Below, one piece after another: positions 45,802 to 60,590 of a stretch of DNA of 64,000 bases; positions within the stretch are counted from its first letter, which is position 1; every line of letters begins with the position of its first letter. Under the pieces are notes generated by a model. It made no database searches and was not told the DNA's origin. It was given only the letters and a program-made list of their open reading frames with translations. The translations under genes and the position numbers were made by a program. Origin of the DNA: Candidatus Moraniibacteriota bacterium (GTDB lineage Bacteria > Patescibacteriota > Minisyncoccia > Moranbacterales > GCA-2747515). The stretch spans positions 2,440 through 66,439 of the forward strand of contig JAGLWU010000002.1 in the NCBI GenBank assembly GCA_023133275.1, written 5' to 3'.

Positions 45802-46485
45802 CTACAATCTAACTAATTCAGTCTTTTCAATATTCTTAATCGCTGACTGAGCAAAAACAGACGGATTATACGCATTGTAAAACAATTCAATCAATTCATC
45901 AGTATTCAAAGTCGTAAAATTTAAACCCGTTCCCCCCAACGCCGCCGCAATATGATCAACTCTCTGATAAAGCTGATTTTTATAAGTCTCAAATAATTCC
46001 TTACGCTCAGTTACAACCTGAGAAGGATTCAACAATGACGACATTTTATTCAAAAAACCACCAGTCGTACTCTCAATCGGAGAAAAAGGCACCACAATAT
46101 AAAAATATTTACTCATGATATTAGTAACCTCAGTAAGATGTTGCACGAATGCACGATATTCTGCTGTCTGAATTTTTAACAATTCATTACGTTGTTTTTT
46201 TTCACTTTCTTTTAAACTCTCTAAATATGGTCTAATATTTAATTTCCGAGAACTAATTACGATTTGAATAGGAAAATCTAAAGAATTGAGAAAATTTTGA
46301 TACGCCCCCACAATAGCCACTTGCTCATCAGAAGCTTTCAAATCAAAATTAATTGACGACACTAATAAAACCGATCTCAACGATCCATTTTTTAACACAA
46401 CAACTCCATCTTTAATTGTTTGAATATCAACATATTTTAAAGTGCTGATATTTTGATTTTCTTTTTGTTTTTTCTTTTTCGCCAT
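45802..46485 (-). CDS. hypothetical soluble protein in the T4SS-like cluster
   Basis: 227 aa with no TM. The N-terminus IKDGVVVLKNGSLRSVLLVSS resembles the beta-rich N-domains of conjugation proteins; weak evidence. Confidence 0.45.
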   Translation of the reverse strand: MAKKKKQKENQNISTLKYVDIQTIKDGVVVLKNGSLRSVLLVSSINFDLKASDEQVAIVGAYQNFLNSLDFPIQIVISSRKLNIRPYLESLKESEKKQRNELLKIQTAEYRAFVQHLTEVTNIMSKYFYIVVPFSPIESTTGGFLNKMSSLLNPSQVVTERKELFETYKNQLYQRVDHIAAALGGTGLNFTTLNTDELIELFYNAYNPSVFAQSAIKNIEKTELVRL

Positions 46486-46607
46486 TTTATTTTTGATAAG
46501 TTAGTAACTGGTAATCAGTAACTAGAAATTAATTGTAAATTGCTATTCTAAATAAATACTTTTTTAAGTTCTAAATTGTAAATTTCTATTTTAAAACGTA
46601 GTAATAT

Positions 46608-46650
46608 TTCTACAAATCTAATGGTCTAAAAATCTATCCTCGATAATCTG
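46608..46650. repeat. TCTA 8-bp phased array; its inverted partner lies at 47447-47478
   Basis: tttctacaaatctaatggtctaaaaatctatcc versus reverse complement atattctacaaatctaatggtctaaaaat. Confidence 0.6.
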
Positions 46651-47086
46651 TTCTTTTTTTAAGGATTTCTTCTAATTTATTATTGCCATTAACACCTCTG
46701 GTATCAAGAGTGTGGGCTAATATGGAAATATCATCTGTATCTAACGGTTTTTTATTGTAAACCACTTGATTCATTTCTATCGGTTCAATTTTTTTCTGTT
46801 TTTTTATTTCGGGATCTCTTTGCCAAGTGTAGGCACGTGGTTTAAATATGTAAAGAATGGCAAATCCAACAAATTGAATTAGAGGTAATCCCTGCGGTTT
46901 GTAAAAAGCGAATGAAACAACAATGATAGTAATTGGAATTGCAACGGTATAAAAAGCGGATTCGTCCAATAGTTTCCAAAGAATTACTAAAATTGTTCCG
47001 CCCGCAAAAAACCAGCCTAATTGTTTCCAAGTTAGTGGTCCAACTATTTTATCTTCAATATCGACATACTGTGGTACTACTTTCAT
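46634..47086 (-). CDS. PrgI-family (VirB3-like) small membrane protein of Gram-positive-type T4SS
   Basis: VPQYVDIEDKIVGPLTWKQLGWFFAGG is the PrgI signature N-terminus; two TM helices. Confidence 0.6.
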   Translation of the reverse strand: MKVVPQYVDIEDKIVGPLTWKQLGWFFAGGTILVILWKLLDESAFYTVAIPITIIVVSFAFYKPQGLPLIQFVGFAILYIFKPRAYTWQRDPEIKKQKKIEPIEMNQVVYNKKPLDTDDISILAHTLDTRGVNGNNKLEEILKKRTDYRG

Positions 47087-53961: not shown

Positions 53962-54035
53962 GCGCGTGTAGCTCAGTTGGTTAGAGTGCTTGCTCGACAC
54001 GCAAGAGGTCTCAGGTTCGAATCCCGACACGCGCA
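53962..54035 (+). tRNA. tRNA-Val (anticodon GAC)
   Basis: GCGCGTG acceptor paired with CACGCGC, D-arm TAGCTCAGTTGGTTAGAGT, anticodon stem CTTGC/GCAAG with loop TCGACAC (C at position 33 is unusual), T-arm TCAGG/TTCGAAT/CCCGA. Confidence 0.75.
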
Positions 54036-54041
54036 CAAATA

Positions 54042-54076
54042 AAAGTAGGGACTAGTCATTGGCTAGCCCCTACTTT
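54042..54076. repeat. REP hairpin 6 (AAAGTAGGGACTAG tcattgg CTAGCCCCTACTTT)
   Basis: GTAG-headed palindrome directly after tRNA-Val. Confidence 0.65.
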
Positions 54077-54090
54077 AATATTAAAATATT

Positions 54091-55254
54091 TTACCGATTT
54101 CCTTTCGCTCGATTGTGAGTTTTACATAACATCTGACAATTTTCAACTGAAGTAGCTCCATTTTTACTCCAAGCTGTAACATGATCAGCATCCATTTCTG
54201 TCAACTTCCAAATTTTATTCTTATTAGCGTCATGTCCAATAGCACAATGTGAACAATTTGATTTATTTTCATTTTTGGCTATTTCTGTTTGTTTTGCATA
54301 AACTAATTTTTTAGTCGCTTCATCAAAAATTCGAACATTTAGCAATTTTGTGTCAACTGAACCACCAAGAATATATTCAAAAATACCTTTACGATTTTTA
54401 ATATACGGATCAGCATAAAGTTTATGTACTTCCGCAGAAACTTTAGCTGGATCATAAGATTTTTTGTGATATTCCTCATACAATCGCCCCCATTCCAATC
54501 CACGCATTTCGCTTTCAACATCTTCAAACACGCCTGAAACCCAATCGATCACACTGTTAAAATAAGTTTTTAATTCATTGATAGTATCATCGTTACGGTG
54601 GCTACTCATATAATCTCCAATATTATTTTCACTAACCCAATCTAAAGCTTGTTCTAAAAATTCTTGTCGGTTGGCACTTCCTTTTATGTAAGCATTCCAT
54701 TTTTGAATATTAGCATTTTGACTATTACTAAATTCTTCTTTGGCGAGAGTTACAAATTGTCCGGAATAAACAGCGTTTAATAATTCTTGATTATTTAAAG
54801 GAACTCCAGCAATATTAATTGTTTTAAACCATTCTTTGATTTCACTTTCACTTCCCTCGCATTGATAAATTAAAAGCTCAGTTTCTAAAATCTTTTTTTG
54901 TTTATCTTCGGCGATTCCGCTGAAATATTGTTCCATACCGTTTTCGTCTTTGATGGCGAATTTATTGGATACGAATCGTCCGATACTAGTAATGCGTTGT
55001 TGTCCATCTAAGACTTCTAAATTGTCATCATCAATTTTATTGAAGTAAATTAATCCTAGTGGATAGCCTTTTAAAATTGATTCGATTACGGCTACATCTT
55101 TTTTACCATCAGCATAAATGTAGTTTCGTTGGTATTCTGGTTGGATAGTTAGTTTTCCTGATAGTCCAAATAATCCTTTGCCTTCGAGTTCGTTATAGAT
55201 AAATCCTTCGCAGATGTCTTTTATGGTGATGTTAGTTTTTAGGGTTGTTTTCAT
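54091..55254 (-). CDS. DUF262 (ParB-like, DGQQR) plus HNH nuclease; GmrSD-like putative type IV restriction/defence enzyme
   Basis: [16 protein letters not shown]262 signature. C-terminal HNH: CSHCA...[12 protein letters not shown]...[10 protein letters not shown]. Confidence 0.7.
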
Positions 55255-55500
55255 TATATTTGTAAAAATTGATTAAAGTTTTTCTTTTTATCTTAAACTA
55301 TGCACTAATTTTATGATATTTTGTGTATAATTGCAAACCTTTGCACAATTTTTTAGTTTTTTTGTACATAGTTTCGGGTCTTTGCACCATTGTGGTGCAG
55401 ACTTGTAATTTTATAGCATCAAATTTGCAAGTATTTTTATTTATAGTTGCAAAAAACGCTAAATTTGTAAGTATAGAAAATTATAGTCTCAAATTTGCAA

Positions 55501-55580
55501 CTATTATTTCTTATAGTCTCTAAAATTACATTATTAGAGACTATTATTCCTTATAGTCTCTAAAATTACATTATTATTTT
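55501..55580. repeat. two tandem 40-bp direct repeats (CTATTATTYCTTATAGTCTCTAAAATTACATTATTA); the second overlaps the Fic gene stop
   Basis: Read directly. A third TTATAGTCTC copy is at 55481. Confidence 0.7.
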
Positions 55581-56645
55581 TATAAGATCATCAAAAAAAT
55601 AGGTTTTATTTTTATTTTTACCGTTATCAGAAATTATTTTTTTATCCTTTAAAAATTTTAAAATTTTAAAAGTATTTGATTTGGGTATTTTAGTTTTAAC
55701 TATGAAGTCCCTTGAATCAAAAAGAGGCATTGAAAAAAGAAAGTCTAAAACTTTAAAATTATTTTTAGGTGTTGGAATATCTACTATTTTATCTTTCAAG
55801 TCGTCATGTAATTTTAAAATTTCTTGTACTTTATTGATATTTTTTATTGACTGTTTTTCTGTTGCAATAAGAAAAAACTTTATCCAGTTTTCCCAATCAT
55901 TATTTTTAGAAATATCTTGTAATCTTTCATAATATTCATCTCTGTGAGTTTCGAAGTACTCACTTAAATAAAACATTGGAGAATGTAGAACTTTTTTATA
56001 GTACAAAAATAGTGGCATTAAAATTCTTCCCGTCCTTCCATTTCCATCCCAAAAAGGATGAATAATTTCAAATTGTGCATGTACTATTGCTAATTGCACT
56101 AAAAAATCTTTTTCATCAAAATGAATATATTTTTCAAATTCTGAAAAGTATTTTTCTATTTCTTGAGGTTCAGGTGGAATATGACTTGCACCTTCAATGC
56201 CCAATCCTTGTTTACCGATAAAAACAGATCCCGTTCTAAATTTTCCAGGTTCTTTTCCGTCTCCTCTTGCTCCTTGTAAAAGTATTTTGTGAATTTTTTT
56301 GATAAGCCTTGTGGAAAGTGGTAATTCATCTAATTTTTCAATTGCCATATTCATGGCTTTTCTGTAATTGATAATTTCTTGAATGTCTTCGTATTTTTCT
56401 GTCTTCTTTTTTGGATTAGCTTCAAATTCTAAAACTTCTTCTAGCGTTGCTTGAGTTCCTTCAATTTTTGAGGATAAAACAGCTTCTTTTGTGGAAAGTG
56501 GGGAAAGTAAAATTTTGGCATTTGGAATGCTTTGTAAAAATCCATCAAATTTTGCTACGGCACGATTTGCTCCTCCAATGTGTTGAACGAAGTCTTCCCA
56601 GTTTAGTTTTTCTAATGGTAGTTTGTGTGGCTTAAATGATTTCAT
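55566..56645 (-). CDS. Fic family protein (Fic_N plus Fic plus C-terminal winged-helix-like tail)
   Basis: SKIEGTQATLEE (Fic_N), HPFWDGNGRTGRILMPLFL (Fic motif). Confidence 0.8.
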   Translation of the reverse strand: MKSFKPHKLPLEKLNWEDFVQHIGGANRAVAKFDGFLQSIPNAKILLSPLSTKEAVLSSKIEGTQATLEEVLEFEANPKKKTEKYEDIQEIINYRKAMNMAIEKLDELPLSTRLIKKIHKILLQGARGDGKEPGKFRTGSVFIGKQGLGIEGASHIPPEPQEIEKYFSEFEKYIHFDEKDFLVQLAIVHAQFEIIHPFWDGNGRTGRILMPLFLYYKKVLHSPMFYLSEYFETHRDEYYERLQDISKNNDWENWIKFFLIATEKQSIKNINKVQEILKLHDDLKDKIVDIPTPKNNFKVLDFLFSMPLFDSRDFIVKTKIPKSNTFKILKFLKDKKIISDNGKNKNKTYFFDDLIKIIM

Positions 56646-56827: not shown

Positions 56828-57457
56828 CTAATTTTTATTTAAAACAATCTTTCCTCTAGTTTTTCTATTTTCATCATTTCCATAGAATCCAGTAATAACA
56901 CTTTCTTTATCTTCGTTAAAAAATAAAACGGCAAAACCATTATGTTCCACAAAACCAGTCGGAATCATTTTTGGATCTTCAGGATTATTTTTATAATGAT
57001 AACCTATCATCCAATTTTTCTTATTATTCTTATCTTGCTTCAAAAAACTAAACGTACTTTCAAATCCTGACTTATCAAAATCACCAGAAAAACTAAAACC
57101 ATTAATAATTTTTTTAATGACAATATCTTTTCCAATCACTTTAGTTTCATACTCTTCCGTATCCCAATTAAATTTATAGGAACTCCAACATTTCATTGTC
57201 CAACTTCCATCAATTTTAGGATATTCTTGAAAACCTAATTGAATAAATATTTTCTTAAAAACCCAATATTTCCATAAATACTTTTCATATAAAATATGAA
57301 GCCCATAAACTATTAAAAAAATAATACTTGATACTATACCATATTTCCAAATATTATATTTAGGATCTATCAAGATGATCTTTTCATTCAAATAATATAA
57401 TACAAAAGTTAAAATTATTATTAATATAATTGCTTTTTTTAAATTTAATTTAGCCAT
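56828..57457 (-). CDS. 2TM plus beta-rich domain protein, Cap15-like candidate CBASS effector
   Basis: Two N-terminal TM helices (AIILIIILTFVLYYL; YGIVSSIIFLIVYGLHIL), then a 150-aa beta-strand-rich soluble domain. The stop lies 12 bp before the nucleotidyltransferase gene on the same strand. Confidence 0.5.
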   Translation of the reverse strand: MAKLNLKKAIILIIILTFVLYYLNEKIILIDPKYNIWKYGIVSSIIFLIVYGLHILYEKYLWKYWVFKKIFIQLGFQEYPKIDGSWTMKCWSSYKFNWDTEEYETKVIGKDIVIKKIINGFSFSGDFDKSGFESTFSFLKQDKNNKKNWMIGYHYKNNPEDPKMIPTGFVEHNGFAVLFFNEDKESVITGFYGNDENRKTRGKIVLNKN

Positions 57458-57469
57458 CGTTGTTATTTT

Positions 57470-58387
57470 TTAATCATTACAAAAATCAGCAATCGCAATT
57501 ATAAATTTATAAGTATTCTCTAAATCCCACATTTTATCAGAAAATAGCATATCTTGACCATTAGCACATTCATAATTTTTTATATTTTCATTTTTTATAT
57601 CATTTGACCAATTTCGAATTATTTTAATAAGCATATCTTGATAGCTTCCATTAAAAATTTCAATTGGAGAATTATAAACTAAATTTTCAACAAAGTATGA
57701 CGGTGCTGAATCTTTCTCTATCTTCATATCTTGCAAAAGTTTTTTCTTCATATTTTTAAAAATACGAACAACAGATTTAAATTTTCCGTTTGTTCTGTCA
57801 TTTAAAGAACTACAATTTTTTAAATGCTCTTTTGGATAATTAATAATAACTTCTCTTGTTCCAGAATTAAATAACTTAATTCCAGGAATATAACTTTTAT
57901 TATTTAAGGAAATAAATCTTTCATATTTTTTATGTTTAAAAGCAGGCACAACATCAGCATTAACTCTATAAGTATTAGCTGGAACTTTTAAACTCTTATT
58001 ATCAAATTTAATTGAGGTGTCAAAATACATTTCAAGCACTTCATGTACATCTTTTTTAAATTTATGGAAATCATACTCAGAGCTATCATAGGAAATTTTA
58101 AAAACTTCTTTTTCTATTTCACTTAAATGATTTATATCGTAAGAAAAAGATTTCTCTAATTGAATAACAACATCAACATCGCTATCAACTTTTATATTAG
58201 TGCTATTCGCATAAGAGCCCTGTAAATATATTTCACAATCAGAAGATTCTATTGAATAATTATGGTTTTTAGAAACTACATGAGAAATATATTTATCTAA
58301 AGCCTCTCTAATTTGTTTGTGTGTATGTATATATCTTGTCGCAACAGGTACATTTGCCCAAGTGCTTAATTGTTGTTCTGTAATCAT
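57470..58387 (-). CDS. cGAS/DncV-like nucleotidyltransferase (CD-NTase/OAS-fold), candidate CBASS cyclase
   Basis: GS-x11-DVD (IYLQGSYANSTNIKVDSDVDVVI), third acidic strand NADVVPAF, OAS/cGAS-type helix SAPSYFVENLVYN. 305 aa. Confidence 0.65.
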   Translation of the reverse strand: MITEQQLSTWANVPVATRYIHTHKQIREALDKYISHVVSKNHNYSIESSDCEIYLQGSYANSTNIKVDSDVDVVIQLEKSFSYDINHLSEIEKEVFKISYDSSEYDFHKFKKDVHEVLEMYFDTSIKFDNKSLKVPANTYRVNADVVPAFKHKKYERFISLNNKSYIPGIKLFNSGTREVIINYPKEHLKNCSSLNDRTNGKFKSVVRIFKNMKKKLLQDMKIEKDSAPSYFVENLVYNSPIEIFNGSYQDMLIKIIRNWSNDIKNENIKNYECANGQDMLFSDKMWDLENTYKFIIAIADFCND

Positions 58388-58405: not shown

Positions 58406-59458
58406 TTATTTTCCCCTATGTTTAATAAAAATTCTCTTAAAAGTTTCTTTACCATTTAAATATAAGCCTTTTCCAAAAATTCCGTTCGGATCTTGATCTA
58501 CTCCTCGATTTGATCCAATTAATTCAAACTGCTCAGGAGAATATTTATTAAGAAAACTAATCGGCACACCCATCACCCCATCAAAATCACTCGGAATATT
58601 TTTCACTAATGAAACCTCTATTGCATTATAATTATCATATTTTTCAAAGGGTTTTTTTGTTACAAACTTCATTATTTCTGATTCAGTCATTAACGATAAA
58701 GGTTGATGACGTTTACCATGATCAATATTAGTAAACCAGATTGTTCCAGCAACAAACGCATATTTATTCCCATCTTCTTCTTTGTGAAAATTTTCATAAC
58801 TATCAGGAACTTGATACCATACATTTCGTCCATCATTTTTTCCAGCACCAATCCACATTTTATTTTCCTTAATCAATGGAAAAACCTCCTTATAAGTAAT
58901 CGCATTCATATTCCCAATAATCACAAACAACTTCCCCGCCTCCACAATCCACCCCAAAAAATCCCGAAACAACGAAAACGGCGGATTCGTAATAATTACA
59001 TCAGCCTCATCCCGCAACACCTTAATCTCATCACTCCCAAAATCACCATCCCCCTTCAAATAACTCCATTCCAAATCATCAACATCCACTTTACCATCGC
59101 CCGTCTTATCATGCATCAAAGTAAAAATCTTCCCATGCTTTTCAGTCTTACTTTCATCAAACTGCGGATCATCCGTTTCAAAAAGAGTCGGTTGATAATT
59201 ATTTTTACAATTCTTACTTTCCGTTGCATAACTAGTACTAATCAATTTTTTCAAACCAAACCTCTCAAAATTTTGAGCAAAAAACTTAGTAAAATTACTC
59301 CATTCCGGATCATCACACGGCAATAAAATAGTCTTATTTCGAAAAACATCAGGATTATACTCAATATAAGCGTTAATTTCTTTTTCAATATCATGATACT
59401 GAGTATAAAACTCATCATTCTTTGCTTTCTTTGCATTTGTGAGATTGCTATTTGCCAT
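58406..59458 (-). CDS. N6-adenine DNA methyltransferase, M.EcoRI-family-like (NPPF)
   Basis: N-terminal KNDEFYTQYHDIEKEI, SAM region ILLPCDDPEWS, catalytic DVIITNPPFSLF. An 18-bp gap to the nucleotidyltransferase gene suggests co-transcription. Confidence 0.55.
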   Translation of the reverse strand: MANSNLTNAKKAKNDEFYTQYHDIEKEINAYIEYNPDVFRNKTILLPCDDPEWSNFTKFFAQNFERFGLKKLISTSYATESKNCKNNYQPTLFETDDPQFDESKTEKHGKIFTLMHDKTGDGKVDVDDLEWSYLKGDGDFGSDEIKVLRDEADVIITNPPFSLFRDFLGWIVEAGKLFVIIGNMNAITYKEVFPLIKENKMWIGAGKNDGRNVWYQVPDSYENFHKEEDGNKYAFVAGTIWFTNIDHGKRHQPLSLMTESEIMKFVTKKPFEKYDNYNAIEVSLVKNIPSDFDGVMGVPISFLNKYSPEQFELIGSNRGVDQDPNGIFGKGLYLNGKETFKRIFIKHRGK

Positions 59459-60080: not shown

Positions 60081-60299
60081 ATGGGACATCTTAATCCTAA
60101 AAAATCTTTACGAGAAATTAGAATTTTACCAAAAAATATTGATTTTACGATGGGTTATGGTATTTATGGTAATGAAGTAGCTTTTATTCCATCACAAAGG
60201 GAAAATTATGATTAGGTGATTGATAGTAAAGAATTGGGTGAAACGATGAAGAATCATTTTGATTATTTCTGGGGAATTTCTAAAAAGTATATAAAATAA
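60081..60299 (+). pseudogene. small ORF interrupted by an in-frame TAG (60213-60215); likely gene remnant
   Basis: MGHLNPKKSLREIRILPKNIDFTMGYGIYGNEVAFIPSQRENYD, then TAG, then VIDSKELGETMKNHFDYFWGISKKYIK in the same frame. Confidence 0.2.
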
Positions 60300-60327
60300 T
60301 CTATTTGTTGGGTTTTTGTTAAATTCT

Positions 60328-60565
60328 TTGTTCCACGTGGAACAATTGTGATAAAAAAAGGTATAATTGTTCCACGTGGAACATTAAAATATATTTAAAA
60401 CAAAAAATTGTTCCACGTGGAACAATTTTTGGTATTTATTAGTTTTATTTGAATTAGTGAATAGTTTTCGTAGCAAACGGTTTGAAACCGTTCACCACAA
60501 TAATTATAAGAAATTTATTAATTTTGTTGTCTCTTTTTTTATATATTTTGTTCCACGTGGAACAA
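60328..60565. promoter_or_regulatory. array of four 18-bp palindromes TTGTTCCACGTGGAACAA (three perfect, one 17/18), candidate operator/iteron sites
   Basis: Copies at 60328-60345, 60367-60383, 60408-60425 and 60548-60565. Spacings 39, 41 and 140 bp. Confidence 0.55.
60470..60498. repeat. REP-like hairpin 7 (GTAGCAAACGGTTT g AAACCGTTcacc), degenerate
   Basis: GTAG head and an AAACGGTTT/AAACCGTTT stem, sitting between palindrome copies 3 and 4. Confidence 0.4.
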
Positions 60566-60590
60566 TTTGAGTATTCAATTTACAAATGAT

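Follow-up and report, generated by a model that had tools for sequence, protein, structure and literature searches.

We analysed a 64-kb stretch of a Candidatus Moraniibacteriota contig (JAGLWU010000002.1), referred to below as the window; all coordinates are positions within it. Its minus strand carries two adjacent genes, cdnE, coding for a predicted clade-E cGAS/DncV-like nucleotidyltransferase (CD-NTase), and cap15, coding for a small membrane protein with a predicted β-barrel (Table 1). Together, CdnE and Cap15 very probably form a type I (two-gene) cyclic oligonucleotide-based antiphage signaling system (CBASS), as judged from sequence and modeled structure. A type I CBASS consists of a cyclase and one effector without ancillary genes (review PMC10419184). 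The pair was assigned to this type because no Cap2/Cap3 or HORMA/TRIP13 genes lie alongside: models of these proteins gave no match among the neighboring methyltransferase, Fic and GmrSD_N-HNH genes in the Pfam and PADLOC searches.

The pair had been proposed in a first-pass annotation of the window. Both open reading frames lie where that annotation placed them and start with ATG, running from 58387 to 57470 (cdnE) and from 57457 to 56828 (cap15), and the TAA stop codon of cdnE is followed after 12 nt by the cap15 start codon on the same strand, the spacing that had been reported. The motifs quoted for the cyclase were likewise found in the translation, namely G57-S58-x11-D70-V-D72, N143-A-D145-VVPAF and S227-APSYFVENLVYN. 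The strengths of the profile and PDB matches of both products, taken from sequence comparison, are far above chance. Identical proteins are present in an NCBI metagenome-assembled genome (MAG; GCA_030630955.1, contig DAOVMA010000006.1) and in two Sequence Read Archive runs. The MAG is filed under Candidatus Moranbacteria bacterium (Patescibacteria group, phylum Moraniibacteriota), in agreement with the earlier guess of a genome resembling those of the candidate phyla radiation (CPR).

The predicted CdnE cyclase and Cap15 effector

The PADLOC cyclase model PDLC00788 matched the cdnE product over residues 2-304 of 305 (3.6e-85; profile positions 3-295 of 297). Among all PDB chains, a phmmer search gave five matches below E 1e-2, every one a clade-E CdnE: the best solved relative was Rhodothermus marinus CdnE (RmCdnE; 2.9e-43), followed by the enzymes of Elizabethkingia (EmCdnE; 3.1e-36), Enterococcus (EfCdnE; 6e-28), Cecembia (ClCdnE; 3.5e-27) and Legionella (LpCdnE; 4.2e-25). 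The next match stood at E 0.028. The GS motif, the DxD motif and the third Asp of the cdnE product align with their equivalents in these five enzymes, and residues G57, S58, D70, D72, D145 and N183 were invariant across 66 homologues. Furthermore, the Pfam domain CD_NTase_C (PF26305) is precomputed on the identical database protein.

The structural comparison gave the same assignment. The AlphaFold2 (AF2) model of CdnE, built with the 66 homologues, had a predicted local distance difference test score (pLDDT) of 95.8 and a predicted template modeling (pTM) score of 0.90. A Foldseek search of the PDB placed RmCdnE (6e0k/6e0l) first, with E 2e-25 and template modeling (TM) scores of 0.84-0.89. 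The top 12 matches were all CdnE (TM 0.77-0.89), with the Rm, Ef, Cl, Lp and Em enzymes in the lead; a STING-associated CdnE followed, then CdnD, CdnC, CdnG, cGAS and a cGAS-like receptor (cGLR), and the top 50 consisted entirely of CD-NTases, cGAS or cGLRs. Clades other than E matched the model by fold only (TM<=0.66). Judged from its closest sequence and fold matches, the cdnE product is a CD-NTase, most probably of clade E. The description of this gene as a cGAS/DncV-like nucleotidyltransferase is therefore borne out by the full-length match to the PADLOC cyclase model, by PDB sequence matches that are exclusively CdnE and by the CD-NTase fold.

A different possibility is that the gene codes for a non-signaling minimal nucleotidyltransferase, that is, a toxin-antitoxin partner of the minimal nucleotidyltransferase (MNT), kanamycin nucleotidyltransferase (KNTase) or AbiEii type, beside an unrelated small membrane protein. 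The generic NTP_transf_2 model (27.6 versus 21) was the sole model that the cdnE product passed in the Pfam copy searched, and there was a marginal match to MntA, both of which would fit such an enzyme. The MntA match, with E 0.095 and 12.6 bits, stayed well below the cut-off of 60, and an identity as MntA was rejected. In contrast, the CD-NTase homology is full-length and includes the C-terminal helical domain, the partner protein passes the Cap15 model and the fold test, and the gene pair is conserved. Structures of KNTase, MNT and AbiEii proteins are absent from the top 50 Foldseek matches, where CD-NTases stand instead. This alternative is barely credible, and a nucleotidyltransferase of the MNT, KNTase or AbiEii type is essentially refuted by sequence and fold.

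The cap15 product passed the Pfam model PF18153 (Cap15_CD_rec) over residues 78-208 (6.4e-11; 43.1 bits versus a gathering score of 31.2; profile positions 2-122 of 122), and PADLOC models of CBASS effectors with two transmembrane helices matched it with values up to 3.7e-19. Kyte-Doolittle windows above 1.6 were confined to residues of about 1-31 and 38-58 of the 209, which gives two transmembrane segments. The AF2 model, built from 17 sequences (pLDDT 80.3), contains long helices at residues 6-26 and 32-59, a short third helix and eight strands. Thus, the hydropathy segments and the modeled helices agree on the two N-terminal transmembrane helices that had been proposed for this protein. Lys-rich flanks give a net charge of +3 ahead of the first helix and +2 past the second, and these charges are compatible with a cytoplasmic barrel in the inferred topology.

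By sequence alone, a phmmer search of the PDB with Cap15 returned no Yersinia Cap15 at E<=10 and no significant match (best E 0.69), and a fold comparison was therefore needed. The three best Foldseek matches of the model were the Yersinia aleksiciae Cap15 chains 7N34/7N35 (E 1e-6 to 6e-5), with target-normalized TM scores of 0.82-0.83 at 16-17% identity; GrlR and lipocalin-like barrels came next, with much lower scores. The β-rich C-terminal domain is accordingly of the Cap15 type suggested earlier, since it passes PF18153 and its eight-strand barrel model lies closest to Yersinia Cap15. An invariant C-terminal motif, GFYGxDENRKTRG, sets apart the subfamily of the window protein.

The association of the two genes is stable. 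The closest relatives of CdnE and Cap15 are 47-55% identical, and each of the 16 related loci checked, mostly from MAGs of Patescibacteria, has the CdnE gene immediately before that of Cap15. The same order was kept across the wider set of related loci (L004-L023), down to 27-36% identity. The pair thus recurs in related metagenome bins, a point that the first-pass annotation had raised, at about 50% identity in further CPR MAGs and with a constant gene order.

Predicted signaling and its nucleotide product

Cap15 is described as a protein of two transmembrane helices and a β-barrel that senses uracil-containing cyclic dinucleotides, oligomerizes and damages the inner membrane (PMC10419184). 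In the mechanism that we propose, phage infection would activate CdnE, possibly through phage RNA, as for Staphylococcus CdnE03. CdnE would then convert nucleoside triphosphates to a cyclic dinucleotide by means of the Mg-binding triad D70/D72/D145, and the cytoplasmic β-barrel of Cap15 would bind this product. By analogy with known Cap15 proteins, ligand-driven oligomerization and membrane disruption are expected here: the bound protein would oligomerize, the membrane would fail, and the infection would be aborted. The cdnE-cap15 cassette may share the promoter of the methyltransferase gene upstream, because only 18 nt separate the methyltransferase stop codon from the cdnE start codon.

The residues around the nucleotide pocket allow a prediction of the product. 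The Asn of lid 1 hydrogen-bonds uracil, and the N166S substitution in RmCdnE switches the product from cyclic UMP-AMP (cUA) to the di-adenine form (cAA); (R/Q)xW at lid 3 is a feature of CdnEs that synthesize di-pyrimidine products (PMC10442399). In the cdnE product, N183 in I-I-N-Y-P-K-E-H aligns with RmCdnE N166 (V-V-N-Y-P-K-L-H) as lid 1, and H188 is lid 2. The lid-3 position is K285-M-W287, where RmCdnE has E-Q-W. C274 aligns with RmCdnE C252, a position at which di-pyrimidine enzymes carry a Glu that closes the donor pocket. Because of the lid-1 Asn N183, and because the literature describes Cap15 barrels as sensing dinucleotides that contain uracil, we give about even chances to a uracil-containing cyclic dinucleotide as the product of CdnE. 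The second base is uncertain, since K285-x-W287 stands at lid 3 together with Cys274 in place of Glu; from these residues, cUA, cUU and cUC (the last two with uracil or cytosine as second base) are not distinguishable.

Several points weigh against the assignment as a type I CBASS or against the mode of action outlined for it. The cdnE product did not pass Pfam SMODS (20.7 versus 26.5 bits) or NCBIfam CBASS_cyclase_b (43 versus 200). It also fell short of the NCBIfam model NF053871 for the DS2_2 anti-phage nucleotidyltransferase (258.3 versus a cut-off of 350 bits) in a full-length alignment; by this score it is related to the DS2_2 family but is no equivalog. The Cap15 model is of moderate confidence only (pLDDT 80, 17 sequences). 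The Cap15 of Staphylococcus schleiferi responds to cyclic GMP-AMP (cGAMP), so that a uracil-containing ligand is not universal for Cap15 (PMC10686824). A sigma-70 promoter scan was uninformative in DNA of 29% GC (50 sites versus 46.7 expected), which leaves co-transcription with the methyltransferase gene unproven. Finally, OptE, a close relative of Cap15, runs on the opposite logic (PMC12657218).

The last point leads to a scheme in which a nucleotide made constitutively by CdnE restrains a Cap15-like toxin, and phage sponges or nucleases set the toxin free. OptE of the Panoptes system belongs to the same S-2TM-β family as Cap15 and works by this reverse logic (PMC12657218), and several CdnEs with a Cap15 partner gene need no added trigger for activity in vitro (PMC10442399). 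However, the defining synthase of Panoptes is an mCpol (Cas10-palm) enzyme (PMC12657218), whereas the synthase of the window is a CD-NTase by sequence and fold; the barrel protein is paired with CdnE in all related loci and with mCpol in none. Moreover, both CdnE-Cap15 systems that have been studied signal positively. Inverse signaling is highly unlikely here, and we favor a type I CBASS in which the nucleotide activates Cap15.

The restriction-modification module around the cassette

The CBASS pair lies within a block of minus-strand genes (Table 1). Immediately upstream is a gene for an EcoRI-family DNA methyltransferase, here called the M gene; downstream are a second cargo gene, for a Fic/DOC protein, and a gene for a GmrSD_N-HNH nuclease, the presumed R gene of a restriction-modification (R-M) module. 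The Fic protein did not reach the NCBIfam SoFic equivalog (179 bits versus a cut-off of 550). The hairpin just past the nuclease gene, one of nine terminator-like sites found by a pattern scan in which 2.3 were expected, is a possible end of the block. One flank consists of ftsH, a tilS-like gene, cmk and a gene for an S1-domain protein, the other of nrdD and rpsO, all ordinary chromosomal genes; tRNA-Val borders the block on the ftsH side.

Table 1. Genes and sites of the CBASS pair and the surrounding defense block, in window coordinates
Feature	Coordinates	Strand	Evidence
tRNA-Val(GAC), border of the defense block on the ftsH side	53962..54036	plus	ARAGORN; Rfam 64.6 bits
Terminator-like hairpin, 14 bp stem and T-tail, just past the HNH nuclease gene	54042..54076	minus	Pattern scan, consensus match only
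GmrSD_N (DUF262) + HNH nuclease, presumed R gene	54091..55254	minus	Pfam GmrSD_N 3.4e-21, HNH 2.8e-6; PADLOC REase_II PDLC03418 5.9e-89, full length
SoFic-like Fic/DOC protein, second cargo gene	55566..56645	minus	Pfam Fic_N 8.4e-28, Fic 2.5e-24; PADLOC SoFic 1.4e-115, full length
cap15, predicted cyclic-dinucleotide receptor/effector with two transmembrane helices and a β-barrel, 209 aa	56828..57457	minus	Pfam, PADLOC, hydropathy, AF2/Foldseek
cdnE, predicted clade-E cGAS/DncV-like nucleotidyltransferase (CBASS cyclase), 305 aa	57470..58387	minus	PADLOC, PDB phmmer, AF2/Foldseek, invariant residues
EcoRI-family N6-adenine DNA methyltransferase (M gene)	58406..59458	minus	Pfam EcoRI_methylase 2.8e-120; PADLOC MTase_II 9.2e-92

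More than 577 relatives of the HNH nuclease turned up in a metagenome scan, and the neighborhoods of the best 80 (L024-L103), at 78-84% identity, were compared. An EcoRI-family methyltransferase (42-71% identical) was encoded upstream on the same strand in 77 of these loci; the remaining three extend less than 330 bp upstream. About 64 of the 80 have no gene between methyltransferase and nuclease. In 13 loci, the M and R genes stand 0.6-3.6 kb apart with other genes between them, and ten of these carry recognizable defense-type cargo: Fic (L039, L069), the defense-associated reverse transcriptase RT_UG21 (L064), PDC-S46 with DUF2130 (L075), RhuM/PDC-S05 (L079, L081, L097), a PDC-S45 protease (L085), an OLD-family ATPase (L090) and AbiU/AIPR (L091). 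CBASS occupied the slot in none of the 80 related loci, and exact-sequence look-ups returned the same arrangement only. These results indicate that the M and R genes form a conserved pair with a variable slot between them, and that CdnE-Cap15-Fic (3.15 kb) is the cargo of this slot in the window. The slot between EcoRI-family methyltransferase and GmrSD_N-HNH nuclease genes could be mined for new defense systems. We also observed that the nuclease (78-84% identical) is better conserved than the methyltransferase (42-71%), a pattern not usually seen in classical type II R-M pairs.

The block was not called an integrated element, because a search for integration scars found neither a directly repeated tRNA-Val 3' end nor any other att-like repeat at its flanks, and because its GC content is not deviant: the GC content is about 29% throughout the window, and the composition of the CBASS locus does not depart from it. 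The cassette could nevertheless be an inactive passenger, recently gained and decaying or silent in a streamlined genome. It is cargo in a variable hotspot that holds no CBASS in the 80 closest M-HNH loci, and no clear Shine-Dalgarno sequence or promoter is recognizable. However, both open reading frames are full length relative to their profiles, the catalytic and family-invariant residues are kept, the GC content is like that of the remaining window, and identical sequences occur in several independent assemblies. We consider an inactive cassette very improbable and prefer an intact CBASS.

R-M genes also adjoin the relatives of the pair. Among close relatives, mostly from CPR, a DNA methyltransferase or R-M system is encoded directly upstream of CdnE-Cap15 in 11 of 12 distinct contexts, and its type is different each time: Dam-like; C5; RadC with a C5 methyltransferase, HpaII and Vsr; N6_N4; type I or IIG; a complete type I hsdRMS; a MvaI/BcnI or TaqI endonuclease with a LexA-methyltransferase fusion; or LexA with a C5 methyltransferase. 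Eight of the 12 contexts have the upstream gene on the same strand, no more than 18 bp away. Two megabase-sized non-CPR contigs (L020, L021), whose CdnEs are 47% and 45% identical to that of the window, carry CdnE-Cap15 between hsdS and hsdR, in the order hsdM, NTase_sub_bind protein, Polbeta-NTase::HsdS fusion, CdnE, Cap15, hsdR. Two other non-CPR loci (L022, L023) lie in a conjugative element and a Tenuibacillus integrase island and have no R-M neighbor.

Three independent loci from CPR or metagenomes encode a LexA-type repressor (LexA_DNA_bind with Peptidase_S24) divergently from CdnE-Cap15. The repressor forms a fusion with an N6_N4 methyltransferase in L008/L009 and in L016, and lies beside a C5 methyltransferase in L017. 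It may control the R-M/CBASS block in response to damage.

This proximity raises the question of whether the cassette is coupled to restriction. It might act as a guard of the surrounding R-M module and fire when restriction is inhibited or overwhelmed, by analogy with PrrC in EcoprrI. Its position inside a conserved M-R gene pair, and between hsdS and hsdR in L020 and L021, would suit such a role, as would the methyltransferase or R-M genes directly upstream in 11 of the 12 close-relative contexts, eight of them on the same strand at <=18 bp. The same gap between M and R, however, holds unrelated cargo elsewhere, the R-M types adjoining CdnE-Cap15 all differ, L022 and L023 have no R-M neighbor, and the embedding of independent defense genes in R-M, bacteriophage exclusion (BREX) and DISARM loci is a general phenomenon that has already been described. 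In addition, the CBASS of S. schleiferi functions when cloned alone. A guard function is thus most unlikely. A broader version, that CdnE-Cap15 in Patescibacteria and some other bacteria is R-M-coupled, co-transcribed cargo serving as an abortive back-up against evasion of restriction, could be drawn from the nesting between M and R here and between hsdS and hsdR in L020/L021, together with the spacing of <=18 bp behind eight R-M types in CPR MAGs; we regard it as improbable.

We read the nesting of a type I CBASS in this module as the known phenomenon of embedding and defense islands, because independent defense genes inside R-M, BREX, DISARM and Hma loci have already been described; a specific coupling to R-M is improbable and unsupported.

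The motif GAATTC is strongly avoided in the window, with three sites versus 33.7 +/- 6.0 in dinucleotide shuffles and 20.7 under a 4th-order Markov model. CATATG (1 versus 6.9) and GATATC (2 versus 9.2) are also low. A link between this avoidance of GAATTC and the M-HNH module is unsupported as a general property, since the 80 related loci showed no depletion (166 observed versus 191 expected).

Other features were observed around the block. Four perfect copies of the palindrome TTGTTCCACGTGGAACAA lie at 60328-60567, with the core GTTCCACGTGGAAC at 60330, 60369, 60410 and 60550; they are confined to the intergenic stretch between the defense block and the gene of a 160-aa membrane protein, where shuffled sequences lead us to expect none. 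These palindromes look like operator or iteron sites for a dimeric DNA-binding protein. Imperfect tandem-like repeats of 40 bp, with units such as ATTTGCAACTATTATTTCTTATAGTCTCTAAAATTACATT that are 73-90% identical, occupy 55411-55572 in the 311-bp spacer from the Fic stop codon to the start codon of the HNH nuclease gene. On the plus strand, positions 60081-60300 contain an open reading frame of 44 aa followed by a short coding-like stretch in another frame that ends in HFDYFWGISKKYIK; in the 1.1-kb non-coding stretch beside the methyltransferase gene, these seem to be what is left of a larger, broken gene. At 45802-47086, about 7 kb from the block, two minus-strand genes code for products with PrgI (150 aa) and TraC-like (227 aa) Pfam domains, which mark them as type IV secretion- or conjugation-like components.

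Occurrence in CPR bacteria and relation to known systems

A scan with the Cap15 alignment, using one genome per GTDB species, found ten loci. All eight with a named lineage belong to CPR (Moraniibacteriota twice, Patescibacteria group, Paceibacter, Saccharibacteria twice, Parcubacteria group and Gottesmanbacteria), and the other two are labeled "bacterium"; the patterns used, DENRKTRG and GFQEYP[ND]I, are specific to the subfamily, and the CPR-only result is to be read accordingly. Among matches with a named phylum, the Cap15 subfamily of the window was found in Patescibacteria MAGs only. The CdnE family is broad in bacteria and archaea, with members in Archaeoglobaceae, Bathyarchaeota, Bacilli and megabase-sized non-CPR contigs. 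A distinct Cap15 subfamily thus circulates among Moraniibacteriota, Paceibacter, Saccharibacteria, Gottesmanbacteria and other Parcubacteria.

The first-pass annotation regarded an abortive-infection system in such a genome as noteworthy. The presence of the system stands; its noteworthiness is weakened, as CBASS in CPR has already been cataloged at survey level. In a survey that applied DefenseFinder to 27,578 bacterial MAGs from aquifers, including 3,004 from CPR, the CPR genomes had few defense systems each but at high density (PMC12259885). Its source data for Fig. 3D give CBASS in 0.0508 and R-M in 0.555 of Paceibacteria MAGs, and its island table lists an "RM,CBASS" (CBASS_I) island in one Paceibacteria MAG (PMC12259885, supplementary source data). 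Our literature search found no main-text discussion of CBASS in CPR. The presence of CBASS in CPR is therefore not new, and PADLOC-type tools would flag the locus automatically.

The locus is a further example of an established type, a type I CBASS of CdnE and Cap15, and leaves the concept of CBASS unchanged. What our study adds is modest: an apparently CPR-restricted Cap15 subfamily, a residue-based prediction of the product, and the cassette as cargo of a slot between M and R. The window holds what appears to be an intact and clean minimal CBASS in an uncultured, ultra-small and probably episymbiotic CPR bacterium, and the locus offers a CPR-derived CBASS for testing. It also has value for annotation, since the names given by NCBI are "nucleotidyltransferase" and "hypothetical protein".

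Two-gene operons of CdnE and Cap15 have been validated by experiment as type I CBASS. A close parallel by description, rather than by sequence, is the type I-B CBASS of S. schleiferi. In that system, CdnE03-Cap15 protects against phage, is triggered by CBASS-activating bacteriophage RNA (cabRNA) and makes cGAMP, and Cap15 permeabilizes the membrane (Banh et al. 2023, PMC10686824). Both loci encode a CD-NTase, here of predicted clade E, followed by a Cap15 with two transmembrane helices, have no ancillary genes and adjoin R-M genes (type I in S. schleiferi). In contrast to the cGAMP product there, the lid-1 Asn here hints at uracil, and the host is a Firmicute there and a CPR bacterium here.

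RmCdnE, a cUMP-AMP synthase (6E0K/6E0L), is closest in sequence and fold, at 34% identity over the structural alignment. The two enzymes share the GS/DxD/D triad, the lid-1 Asn in NYPKxH, the lid-2 His and the Cys at the position of RmCdnE C252. They differ in insertions around residues 35-46 and 80-100 and at lid 3, where the window enzyme has Lys (K285-M-W) and RmCdnE has Glu (E265-Q-W); in this respect, the window enzyme is nearer to the (R/Q)xW of di-pyrimidine CdnEs. ClCdnE, EfCdnE and LpCdnE are such di-pyrimidine synthases and are encoded beside Cap15 (PMC10442399). These three enzymes (7X4A/7X4C/7X4F) share with the window CdnE what is probably the same clade, the Cap15 partner, the lid-1 Asn and a basic-x-Trp lid 3, but are only 25-26% identical to it, and their Glu, which pairs with the lid-3 Arg or Gln, is Cys274 here. 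With Cys274 in place of this pocket-narrowing Glu, exclusive use of pyrimidines is therefore not predictable. Cap15 of Yersinia aleksiciae (7N34/7N35) and the window protein have in common the two N-terminal transmembrane helices, a compact β-barrel receptor and PF18153; they differ in sequence (16-17% identity), the window protein being in its own subfamily (GFYGxDENRKTRG).

The arrangement of the cassette also has precedents. Independent defense genes embedded in type I R-M, BREX, DISARM and Hma loci have been described under the term "guilt by embedding" (Payne et al. 2024, bioRxiv 10.1101/2024.01.29.577857). As in those loci, and as with PrrC in type I R-M, an independent defense cassette lies inside a restriction system, in a slot that is filled differently from genome to genome. 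In contrast to the loci of Payne et al., the host module here is a two-gene unit of an EcoRI-family methyltransferase and a GmrSD_N-HNH nuclease, and its cargo is CBASS together with Fic.

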